The notes below the pieces were generated by a model. That model was not told where the DNA came from. It searched no databases and saw only the letters and a list, made by a program, of their open reading frames with translations. This document shows, piece after piece, positions 3,720 to 42,673 of a stretch of 64,000 nt of DNA (the stretch's first letter is position 1; each line of letters begins with the position of its first letter). Origin of the DNA: Mustelus asterias (lineage: Eukaryota); NCBI RefSeq assembly GCF_964213995.1, contig NW_027591667.1, forward strand, positions 1 through 64,000, written 5' to 3'. The position numbers and the translations under genes were made by a program.

Positions 3720-4370
3720 CACTCTCACACATCTCCTTCACCTTCATTCCAATATTAAGTGCAATGAGCTGATGGACATTTTTCTCACAAAGATTGAGGC
3801 CATGTCTTCCACTGCCTCTGTTGCTTTGTTCGCTTCCCCCTACTCCATCTGGCCAAACTTTTTCTTATGTTCCCCAAACACCAGCCCTGAACTCACATCT
3901 CTCTCTAGATTCTATCCGATTTCCCATTTCCAAACTCACCTTTTTCCTCCTCCTCCCATTCTGTTCCCACCTTTAACATGCAACTTCTTTTCCCGGCTAA
4001 CTATTAGTTTATGTTAATAGTTCCTCCTCCTCAGAGACTGTCCCATTCAAATCTATCATCGCTCCTCTCCTCCCCATCTCCAGCCCCCCTATCCTCTCCA
4101 AGATCCTCAAACATTTTGTCATCTCCCAAAAGCTGATCTTTTGCACATTTTGATGCTTGACTTCCTCCAAAAATTACGCATTATATTCCTTGTGACTGTG
4201 ACCATGTTAAATTAATCCCCTCCCCTCAATTTTCTCAACCTATCTGCAGACTTCAATATGATTGATCATGCAGGCCTTCTTGAAAACCGCTCCTCCATTG
4301 TCCAGCTGAGTGGGATTACAGTTGCCCCGTTCTATTCTTAGTTATTGAATTGTGGCTGGAGAATCATTCG
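3720..4370 (+). mobile_element. L2 LINE RT fragment, decayed
   Basis: KCNELMDIFLTKIE, then a degenerate LxLSAxFxxxDH...VQLSG motif typical of L2 RT. Confidence 0.7.
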
Positions 4371-9831: not shown

Positions 9832-10890
9832 ATTTTTTTTTCTAAAAATACACCTCATTCATAAAATTTGTAAAAATACATTACATAACAGTTCAAATTT
9901 CACATGAAATAAAAGTGAGATGGAGATCAGATTTTGCAATACAGTACATGAGATGTTGCGCTTTGTCATTACAGGTTATGTATACAATATACATTTACAG
10001 TTCATGACAAGCATTCTCTGATGCATACGGTCTGTGTAGTTTTACACAGTTTCTAGCTCCTTGGTATACTTTGGCAAGAGGACTTTAAGCAATGGTCTTT
10101 CCCTATTGAGTCCCCCTCCGGCAACTTCCCCAAGCTTGCATGCATCCCTCAGCATGTAGTCCTGCACCTTGGAATATGCCAGCCTGCAACACTCAGTAAT
10201 TGACAGCTCTTTGCATTGGAAGACCAGCTAGGCAGACCCAAAAAAGCATCCAAGATGAAGGTTCTCTGGCAGCAGTTGATGTTTATTTCAGTATTTGTCC
10301 CTGAAAACAGCCCAAAGAGCACTGAGTCCCATATTATAGAACAGATCCATTGTCAAAAAACACTGTATCTCTTTCCAGGCCCACTTTGAAAAGGAACATT
10401 CCATAAGAAGGCAGGCGGTAGTCTCTTGCCCACTATAGCCCTTCGAGAGTGCAGAACTAGTGAGACTCTGGGCTTACCAGAAGGATCTGATAGGGAGAGC
10501 CCTTCTCAACACCAACCAAGTCCTGGATATTGTTTAAAAGTTCTGATGATGTGATGGTGTACTCATGAACCATCCAACAGAATATAACGCTTCCTTTTTC
10601 TTTAGGGCCTCGAGGGTGTTACATGCAGACCACTGCCTGTTGGAATTGCTGTAAGTAGTGATTTTCTGCACCATCTTTTCCAACATCCAACTGAATGCGG
10701 CATTCTGCGACAGTGCGGCCCATCCCATCCTTCGCAACAATGGGGAAGAAGATAGAAGCTCAACATGGAGTGACACTTGGTGTTTGCATAACCAGAATCT
10801 ATTCAGAGCCTGATGCAGCCACGCAAAAAGATGGCCATCAGATGAAGGCGACACCTGGTATGTTTCTTTTTCCCCCTTTATCCAGAGGTT
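9832..10890 (-). mobile_element. Tx1-clade LINE 3' fragment
   Basis: Poly(A) tail (T-run at 9833-9841); translations SPLLRRMG...RQWSACNTLEAL and LVFQCKELSITECCRLAYSKVQDYMLRDA, typical of Tx1 ORF2 C-terminus. Confidence 0.8.
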
Positions 10891-31003: not shown

Positions 31004-31194
31004 CTGCAGCTTTACCAGGATTGGTACCTCATTTGTGGGTGTGCCTGGAGCTGCTCTGGACATTCACTGGACCATGTTTGGTCCCTCAGCTTGACTGTAG
31101 TGGGAGAGTGAAGGATATGCAGGTATGAGGTTACAGATTGTGGCTGAACACAATTCTACTGCTGCAGTTGGTTTACAGAATTCATAAATGCCCA

Positions 31195-31522
31195 GCCTTT
31201 TGGCTAAGATCAAGTGTATGGACGGCAGCCCATGGTCGGCCGCACTTGGTCGAGGTCATTAGGTTACGCTGAGGCCTCATATGTTTCATATGAAGCAATT
31301 TTTAAAAGCGGCATCTCGGCCTTTTGGCTAAGATGCAAATGAGCTCAAGTCTTGGAGGAGGATCCTCCCCCTTCTCCAATCAGCTTGGCTCATGTAGATC
31401 AGGCCCAGGACAGGGTGGTTTGGTCGCTCGCTCTGTCTTGGCAGCCTGGATCTGAAATGTCTCGACTTGTTGAGACTCTGAATTGGATTTGATTTGATTG
31501 AATTGGAAAAGTATTAAAAAAA
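31195..31522 (+). mobile_element. U2 snRNA-headed SINE-like element, copy 1
   Basis: gccttttggctaagatcaagtgta equals U2 nt 12-35; second U2 module at 31311-31350; A-tail; TSD atgcccag at 31188-31195 and 31525-31532. Confidence 0.88.
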
Positions 31523-31651
31523 TGATGCCCAGTTAGTTAGTTAGTTGTTCAATCCATTATGAATCATTCCGTTTAGCACAGTTGTATAGCCACAAATATG
31601 AAAGGGGATATGATCAGTGTGAAATGGGACTTTGGTTTCACAAGGACTATG

Positions 31652-31802
31652 GATGCTAGAACCTGAAACAAAAAGAGAAAATGTTGGAAAATCTCAGCAG
31701 GTCTGACAGCATCTATGGAGAGAAAATAGAACTAATGTTTCGAGTCTGGGTGACCACTGATGCTGTCAGAGCTGCTGAGATTTTCCAGCATTTTCTGTTT
31801 TT
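31652..31802. mobile_element. Fold-back PLE-type mini insertion
   Basis: gaaaatgttggaaaatctcagcaggtctgacagcatc and inverted gatgctgtcagagctgctgagattttccagcattttc. Confidence 0.7.
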
Positions 31803-41823: not shown

Positions 41824-42145
41824 TTTTCTTTTTAATATACTTTTCCAATTCAATCAAATCAAGTCCGAATCATAGTCTCAACAAGTTGAAACATTTCCGA
41901 TCCAGGCTGACAAGACAGGGCATGCAAGCCTCTACCCTGTCTTGGGCCTGATCTACATGAGCCAAGCTGATTGGAGGAGGCGCAGGTCTTCTTCCTCCAA
42001 AGCTTGATCTCATTTGCATCTCAGTCAAAAGGCCGAGATGCCGCTTTTAAAAATTGCTTCATATGAAACATATGAAGCTTAAATGCAACCCAATGGCCAC
42101 TACCAAGTGCAGCATCGGCATAACCACACCTGATCTTAGCCAAAA
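41824..42145 (-). mobile_element. U2 snRNA-headed SINE-like element, copy 2
   Basis: Minus strand ttttggctaagatcaggtgt...gcatctcggccttttgactgagATGCAAATgagatcaag...aattggaaaagtatattaaaaagaaaa; colinear with 31195-31522. Confidence 0.88.
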
Positions 42146-42673
42146 AATGCTTATGGCACTGTATCCACAACTTCACCATCTCACGCCTGCTACTGACTTC
42201 TTCTGTCACCGATACCCACTTCATCTTTGTTATGGCAACTGGCTTCATCTTGCCAATTATATGAAATCGCAACCCATTCCCTGGCCCTCTTCCCACCACC
42301 ATCTCTGCCGCCCCACTTCCACCCACCCACTCCCTGGTCCTTACAGCATCCGGCTGAAGTTCTTCCCAAGTTGCACTGGGCCTTAAGTAGGTGACTGGGA
42401 ATGACATCATTTGGGTGAGCATTGTGCTGACTGATACATGACATGGAGCTCAGAATCAAATTTCAAATGAAGACAGGTACTCTGTCACCTGCTATCACTT
42501 TGCATTTGCACTTGCAAGAATGAGGACTTTGAAATTTGACTTAATACTGGTTTTCTTATTGTTGAGGAAATAAGCATTCAACATGGAAGTGTCATTCAGC
42601 GGATGAAATAATAAACTACAATTAACAAAGTAAAGATTAATTAAGTCACAGCCACCTAAAAATACCATATTAA

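Follow-up and report, generated by a model that had tools for sequence, protein, structure and literature searches.

Short interspersed elements (SINEs) headed by small nuclear RNA (snRNA) sequence, or SINEU, have been described from crocodilians, where SINEU-1, -2 and -3 are distinguished; that report found none outside crocodilians, presents the families as mostly old and as preferring Mariner-N4_AMi, and names SINEU transcription as an open question (Kojima 2015, PMC4494074). Short high-copy retroposons of cartilaginous fish are also known, namely CmiSINE and SacSINE1, which, unlike the shark SINE described here, combine a tRNA head and pol III boxes with an L2 tail; the accessible text of this chondrichthyan SINE paper mentions neither snRNA nor SINEU (Luchetti 2017, PMC5499810). 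In snRNA/LINE-1 chimeric retrocopies, a 5' piece of an snRNA is likewise joined to a retroelement and flanked by target-site duplications (TSDs); according to the sections of the source at hand, these chimeras form by ligation or template switching, as one-off products with variable junctions, whereas the junctions of the shark SINE are fixed in many-copy subfamilies (PMC11838501). No shark SINEU was found in the literature searched; Repbase, Dfam and most subscription journals lay outside the scope of this search, and an entry there is possible.

A first-pass annotation of the window (the whole 64,000-nt stretch of Mustelus asterias DNA that was analysed) proposed two dispersed copies of an element of this kind. 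The first copy, at 31195-31522 on the plus strand, opens with a 5'-truncated head, U2 nt 12-35 (31195-31218), which matches the U2 gene of the same genome in 24 of 24 positions; full copies begin at U2 nt 1, and the subfamily lacks U2 36-38. Behind the head lie module A (31219-31310), with a perfect AT-rich hairpin, a T5 run and a predicted masking strand; a second U2 head (31311-31336), matching U2 nt 4-27 in 23 of 24 positions over 31311-31334, remodelled into a longer hairpin and representing the older 5' end of the element; module B (31339-31392), a hairpin that duplicates the first hairpin of a sister family, here called family B; module C (31394-31497), homologous to family B; and the 3' end (31498-31522), which closes with an A7 tail (31516-31522). 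The 8-bp TSD copies occupy 31188-31195, the last base being common to the head, and 31525-31532. The second, colinear copy (41824-42148, minus strand) belongs to an older subfamily, has a U2 15-34 head and aligns with the first from 42145 to 41829 (82% identity over 327 nt, E 3e-88); a TSD was looked for at this copy and not found. The U2 head, the second U2 module, the A-tail and the 8-bp TSD of the first copy had been noted from the letters alone and were borne out, as was the absence of a tRNA head and of an ORF, none being longer than 40 codons. The proposed location inside an old LINE fared less well, with one 69% repeat match in the upstream flank and none in the downstream flank.

The SINE is 339 nt long, with a longest ORF of 40 codons and three T4+ runs, and a search for an internal pol III promoter yielded no B box, no tRNA and one loose A-box-like match. 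An Rfam scan of the whole window returned nothing at the element, and the Rfam U2 model applied to the element alone gave 23.6 bits for the window copy, under the U2 threshold of 46 bits, so that the SINE does not qualify as a U2 snRNA gene or variant. Further downstream, at 31681-31791, there is a 110-bp inverted-repeat element that is abundant at other loci and shows weak Rfam microRNA matches below the cut-off.

Genome-wide, an internal 18-mer of the SINE has 5,356 exact matches (reversed control, 0), a floor for the copy number. A DNA search of the 3.68-Gb genome returned 2,352 candidates, the 40 that were scored being mostly 97-98% identical and distributed over many contigs, and a random sample of 200 kb contained one SINE copy, too few to refine the copy number. 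The inference of a high-copy non-autonomous retroposon of the SINEU kind, drawn originally from two copies, is upheld by the 5,356 matches, far from a mere handful. We examined 74 copies (the top matches, the first 30 on contig 1, their neighbours and both window copies) and tabulated their ends: 67 of the 74 have a U2 head that starts at nt 1-15 and ends at nt 34-40, seven are headless, and none of the set extends upstream, while exact TSDs of 7-26 bp, mostly beginning at A or AT, flank 42 of the 74. Junction classes mark out subfamilies, one junction being identical in 26 of 84 copies, and these fixed classes, together with a shared internal design, define a family, unlike independent chimeric retrocopies. 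The youngest subfamily is 99.4% identical to its majority sequence (27 copies, a biased set picked for likeness to the window copy); the window element, which belongs to this subfamily, is 98.4% identical to the majority and is a young copy. Same-strand SINE pairs less than 450 bp apart number 10 among the 100 matches listed (0.07 expected). Sixteen sequencing runs from eight organisms contain 0.23-0.66 of the sampled SINE words, counted as unaligned word matches, which is a lead, and only a lead, to a possible presence of the SINE in several species; no RNA run was listed as containing these words.

By its design features the SINE belongs to the SINEU class, the crocodilian families being compared by description as given in the available part of the report (PMC4494074). 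It shares with them a U2-derived head, repeated 5' addition of snRNA heads (here an internal second head and a set of double-headed copies), a length under 500 bp, a poly(A) tail, internal T-runs, the absence of pol III boxes, tandem copies sandwiching a TSD, and a Tx1 partner LINE that has shared targets and an snRNA head (Tx1-Mar in crocodilians); family B resembles SINEU-3 in design, both consisting of remodelled U2. Unlike the situation in that report, the family belongs to a cartilaginous fish, U2 genes are still targeted by the partner at the Keno site, some SINE copies lie in U2 genes at the promoter, and the shark SINE is young, with a predicted masking hairpin and hyper-edited copies. 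If this assignment is true, SINEs with an snRNA head, so far described from a single reptile order, also occur in cartilaginous fish, where their origin was probably separate.

The claim that the element contains none of the 3' part of U2 holds for U2 111-191, which is not detectable in the SINE body (249 of 2000 shuffles as good), and fails for about nt 40-100: the 3' part of module C (31433-31497) aligns with U2 40-110 (15 of 2000 shuffles equally good) and represents degenerate U2 with a stem-loop kept. Family B, about 200 nt long, consists of a U2 head, a hairpin, degenerate U2 through the 3' half and an A-tail; a search with a U2-headed fragment returned 2,575 candidates, and the family is older than the SINE (92.8% to the majority, 26 copies). 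Its loci (L180-L209, e.g., G000:C1:155290766-155290886) span the U2 head to the 3' stem-loops, and its Rfam U2 score, 31.3 bits, is likewise below the 46-bit threshold. Family B aligns with U2 40-191 with a score of 113.5 (best of 2,000 shuffles, 62.5), and the 3' part of the SINE aligns with family B with a score of 88.5 (best of 2,000 shuffles, 49); module B matches the family B hairpin with E 6e-8 in an old copy and E 0.13 in the youngest subfamily. Given that the 3' third of the SINE resembles family B and that module B duplicates its hairpin, the right half descends, as judged from these alignments, from a family-B-like monomer, in front of which a new U2 head and module A were added. Module A shows no significant similarity to U2 40-110 (607 of 2000 shuffles). 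The notion that the element as a whole imitates the structure of full U2 was dropped in view of the forced global Rfam alignment and of the shuffle results for module A and U2 111-191.

The predicted RNA fold has a z-score of -7.7, and in the consensus fold U2 25-37 pairs with a strand in module A (in the window copy, about 31242-31250 with U2 25-35). Over 42 copies, 97% of the paired cells are paired and the covariation exceeds all 500 shuffles, with the reservation that the fold was derived from the same sequences as the pairing test and that related sequences can beat a shuffle control; compensatory pairs number 5 of 57, one of them in the masking helix, and 39 of 500 shuffles have as many. 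Indels are concentrated in loops (36 of 169 loop columns vs 2 of 114 paired columns). The masking helix is predicted by this model to hide the U2 stretch that pairs with the branch site, which we take to be U2 33-38.

A candidate for the partner is a 5.2-kb Tx1-type LINE found in the U2 arrays on contigs C24 and C21. Its ORF1 contains RNA-binding and zinc-knuckle domains, and its ORF2, with an unbroken 1,144-aa frame in five copies, encodes an apurinic-type endonuclease and a reverse transcriptase (RT) alongside a zinc-finger domain. The LINE bears its own U2 head, and in the arrays the sequence after its A-tail is U2 from nt 39 on. This 3' flank corresponds to that of Keno and Utopia, the apurinic-type endonuclease to that of Keno, and TSDs in U2 of up to 20 bp to those of reptile Utopia; in contrast to Keno and Utopia as described in the available part of the source, the shark LINE has relaxed specificity and its own U2 head, and the SINE itself is non-coding (Kojima and Jurka 2015, PMC4640811). 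None of the 114 protein matches is labelled as a named Keno protein, and we call the LINE Keno-like by its endonuclease/RT type and insertion site. Its protein fragments are 69-72% identical to Scyliorhinus and Heterodontus proteins, and about 45% to amphibian ones over longer stretches, in keeping with a host among the cartilaginous fish. The LINE tail has 602 dispersed matches genome-wide, with U2 following in one of the 30 listed, which is not strict U2-gene specificity; 21 of 41 LINE ends have a TSD of 7-21 bp. The window itself contains an old Tx1-like fragment (10093-10850, minus strand) that is 64% identical to the ORF2 region of this LINE.

The SINE and the LINE have similar TSD lengths and site bias, and they are found together: no more than 60 bp separate the LINE tail from the start of a SINE at 5 of 30 tail loci and in 7 of 19 long tailed LINE copies (chance below 5e-4 each), and one locus (L145) reads SINE-TSD-LINE-TSD-SINE-TSD, with one TSD common to the two SINEs and the LINE fragment. 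Through these common sites and TSDs the LINE qualifies as a Tx1 element with a shared target preference, and we consider its partnership with the SINE highly probable; it is the likely motor of the SINE, presumably by way of its own enzyme. The annotation had offered two alternatives, an independent SINEU or a derivative of a U2-targeting LINE that had lost site specificity. A U2-targeting Tx1 LINE with relaxed specificity does appear to be involved, although the SINE is very probably not a deletion derivative of it, and the evidence supports taking the two alternatives as complementary, the SINE being built from U2 pieces and riding the Keno-like LINE. One common host repeat also contains several young SINE copies and one LINE copy at roughly matching positions (loci L003-L005, L016, L024, L026, L241, L287 and L297, of which four on C85 may be duplicates of one insertion); this repeat is possibly a preferred target outside U2.

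SINE copies also reside in U2 gene arrays, an arrangement that had been named in advance as contrary to the retroposon reading and that turns out to support it. Seven copies are directly followed by U2 nt 39 onward, and eight were found, among more than 5,000, that begin at +1 of U2-gene upstream DNA. Of these, the C24 and C21 arrays contain one each; the other six are in dispersed pieces, two of them on C14 and one each on C1, C8, C6 and C23. At least about 240 nt of the U2 upstream sequence is retained in five of the eight. One of the U2-upstream searches gave 17 matches to unrelated repeats among 23, which were left out. Copies that start exactly at U2 +1 point to transcription from the U2 promoter. 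Furthermore, dispersed TSD-flanked blocks contain array spacer DNA (L139, L159 and a C14 block); since mature U2 RNA could not have supplied the spacer, these blocks very likely arose by retrotransposition of RNA that came from an array and included the SINE. We also identified 18 double-headed SINE copies (control, 0) in which the first head ends at U2 51-57, the lower edge of this range being fixed by a search pattern that accepted first heads extending to nt 51 or beyond; in the U2 arrays, insertions have TSD ends at similar positions, U2 52-58. Template switching to U2 RNA could give chimeras like the double-headed copies. Taken together with the arrangement of the promoter-fronted copies, these comparisons make borrowing of the U2 gene promoter by the SINE probable. 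The promoter-fronted C24 copy was considered as a master and rejected: its private variant is unique (one match genome-wide) and seen nowhere else, so that it has no detectable offspring.

We propose a tentative model in which a U2-derived SINE is moved by a U2-headed Keno-like Tx1 LINE and transcribed from U2-lodged copies through the U2 promoter, a combination that we regard as reasonably probable. Copies of the family are dispersed, end in an A-tail, are flanked by TSDs and have one internal design in common. The LINE endonuclease and RT would act on loose A/AT sites for LINE and SINE alike, and repeated use of one site, visible in the shared sites, would build tandem stacks; in U2 genes both enter before nt 39. 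There the U2 head of the SINE would replace the 5' end of the gene, so that the snRNA promoter would drive an RNA from U2 +1 through the SINE, the very unit that is found dispersed; an insertion that leaves U2 1-52/58 in front would yield a transcript giving rise to double-headed copies. The complementary strand is predicted to fold over U2 25-39 and might keep the RNA off introns. Part of the RNA pool would be hyper-edited from A to I, probably by ADAR in duplex with antisense copies, and such RNA would still be reverse-transcribed into germ-line DNA. The fullest version of this scenario, an independent young shark SINEU that makes up for its lack of a promoter by homing to U2 genes, is inserted there before nt 39 by the Keno-like LINE, gives a capped, head-masked RNA from the promoter of the gene, is scattered by the relaxed endonuclease and is A-to-I edited before insertion in at least 0.5% of copies, is tentative and falls a little short of probable. 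If promoter borrowing is true, a small-RNA gene of the host serves the SINE as target and promoter alike; with a young SINE, an intact-looking LINE and candidate U2-promoter source loci coexisting in one genome, SINEU transcription becomes directly testable.

Runs of A>G changes in 2 of 42 aligned SINE copies were the first sign of editing. A search pattern requiring one such change found 30 loci (L268-L297; control, 0), of which 26 carry 7-35 A>G changes each, in total 484 A>G vs 53 G>A and 64 T>C; in 82 unselected copies the corresponding background is 141 vs 145. Outside the search pattern, 24 copies have changes at 234 of 1,287 As, compared with 42 of 1,330 in controls, with no excess of T>C. 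Edited As have a G too rarely on their 5' side (p 3e-10) and too often on their 3' side (p 5e-4); ADAR enzymes disfavour a 5' G and favour a 3' G. The 26 copies thus combine clustered one-strand A>G changes, the ADAR-type neighbour bias and independent patterns, and the clusters likely represent A-to-I RNA editing written back into the genome, the pattern suggesting an ADAR as the enzyme. Twelve of the 26 belong to one subfamily, and 14 keep credible TSDs, after 4 of 18 calls that matched neighbouring SINE or internal sequence were dropped. At least 26 copies in about 5,400 are edited. No A>G cluster occurs in the window copy, in 20 long LINE copies or in 26 family B copies, neither of these sets having been selected for editing.

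Inheritance from one edited master was rejected, given 12 distinct sets of changes and the failure of 318 of 595 site pairs to fit a single tree, as was editing through an inverted neighbour at the insertion site (3 of 30 loci vs 1 of 26 controls). Editing through the element's own hairpins was also rejected: unpaired As are changed more often (101 of 432) than paired ones (133 of 855), which makes a duplex with an antisense copy likelier. The hyper-edited copies indicate that SINE RNA was present in germ-line cells, probably in double-stranded form, and that editing does not always block retrotransposition; if the interpretation is true, germ-line RNA editing has left, in these copies, a heritable trace in the genome of a vertebrate. 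In human L1, one study found no editing of L1 RNA, according to the part of the text available (PMC5224506), and our literature search surfaced no paper on hyper-edited genomic SINE copies.

The same SINE and LINE motor are compatible with another source of RNA: dispersed masters could be transcribed from chance host promoters, with heads acquired through ligation or a switch of template, in which case copies lodged in U2 genes would be dead-end Keno by-products. A search behind two U2 upstream types yielded no promoter-fronted member of the youngest subfamily, one resident variant, on C24, has left no detectable offspring, and in L251 the second of the two heads alone is edited, which fits two separate RNAs; the excess of edited unpaired As suggests antisense pairing, as in host read-through RNA, and the accessible portion of Kojima 2015 favours template switching for the 5' additions of SINEU and upstream promoters for transcription (PMC4494074). 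Such masters predict 5' extensions of host DNA, however, whereas the 67 headed copies start within U2 1-15 and all 5' extensions characterised were U2 or U2-array DNA; moreover, the junctions are fixed within subfamilies (26 identical among 84), and the heads therefore appear to be inherited rather than added anew each time. We consider dispersed masters unlikely.

The other explanations that we weighed are far less probable. Descent of the SINE by internal deletion from the Keno-like LINE, with both ends of the LINE kept, would account for the identity of the youngest subfamily and the LINE over 33 nt at the 5' end, with the junction after U2 35 among them, and for the weak co-terminal likeness of the SINE tail to the LINE 3' end (8 of 2000 shuffles), and real deletion derivatives of the LINE do occur in the arrays (L045); but beyond the U2 head the SINE has no other significant match in the 5.2-kb LINE, the LINE 5' UTR is not significantly similar to the SINE body (144 of 2000 shuffles) or, in a second test, to the SINE or family B (432 of 2000), and the SINE body traces to U2 through family B, which makes this descent very improbable. 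We give slightly less credence still to the suggestion that the SINE carries its own snRNA-type promoter parts, an upstream copy in a stack driving the next from U2 +1. Tandem stacks are common, and ATGCAAAT, which we take to be octamer-like, is located 190 nt upstream of the 3' end, some 200 nt from the next stacked head, while 10 nt located 82 nt before the end match one of the U2 gene types in its -61 region, presumably the PSE; yet this match would be about 95 nt away from the next head instead of 60 nt, both motifs are in U2-derived or paired sequence and may be by-products, and no octamer was found in the upstream DNA of the genome's own U2 genes. Least probable of all is mobilisation mainly by another LINE (CR1, L2 or L1) with a secondary Keno-like association: CR1-type LINE remnants predominate in the 64-kb window and the SINE has no clear tail in common with the Keno-like LINE, but it inserts at the exact Keno position in U2 genes and shares TSDs with that LINE in mixed stacks, with similar TSD lengths and site bias.

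Several features of the U2 loci themselves were recorded. There are two U2 gene types (L031-L040, L081-L086) that differ in their upstream DNA and 3' halves (about 89% identical) and are arranged in units of 1,833 bp on C24 and about 450 bp on C21. At 44.81-44.94 Mb of C24 (L041-L044), an 8,035-bp unit composed of an intact U2 gene and a double-headed Keno-like LINE with a broken ORF2 has been amplified at least a dozen times in tandem. An internally deleted LINE derivative (U2 head, LINE 5' UTR and LINE 3' part) is located in a U2 cluster (L045:3650-3900, with repeats in L094), and one deleted derivative is preceded by a stretch that may resemble the U1 5' end. Finally, array U2 genes at L048:2125-2331 and 3974-4180 carry short internal duplications in the region of nt 19-37, near the LINE target site.
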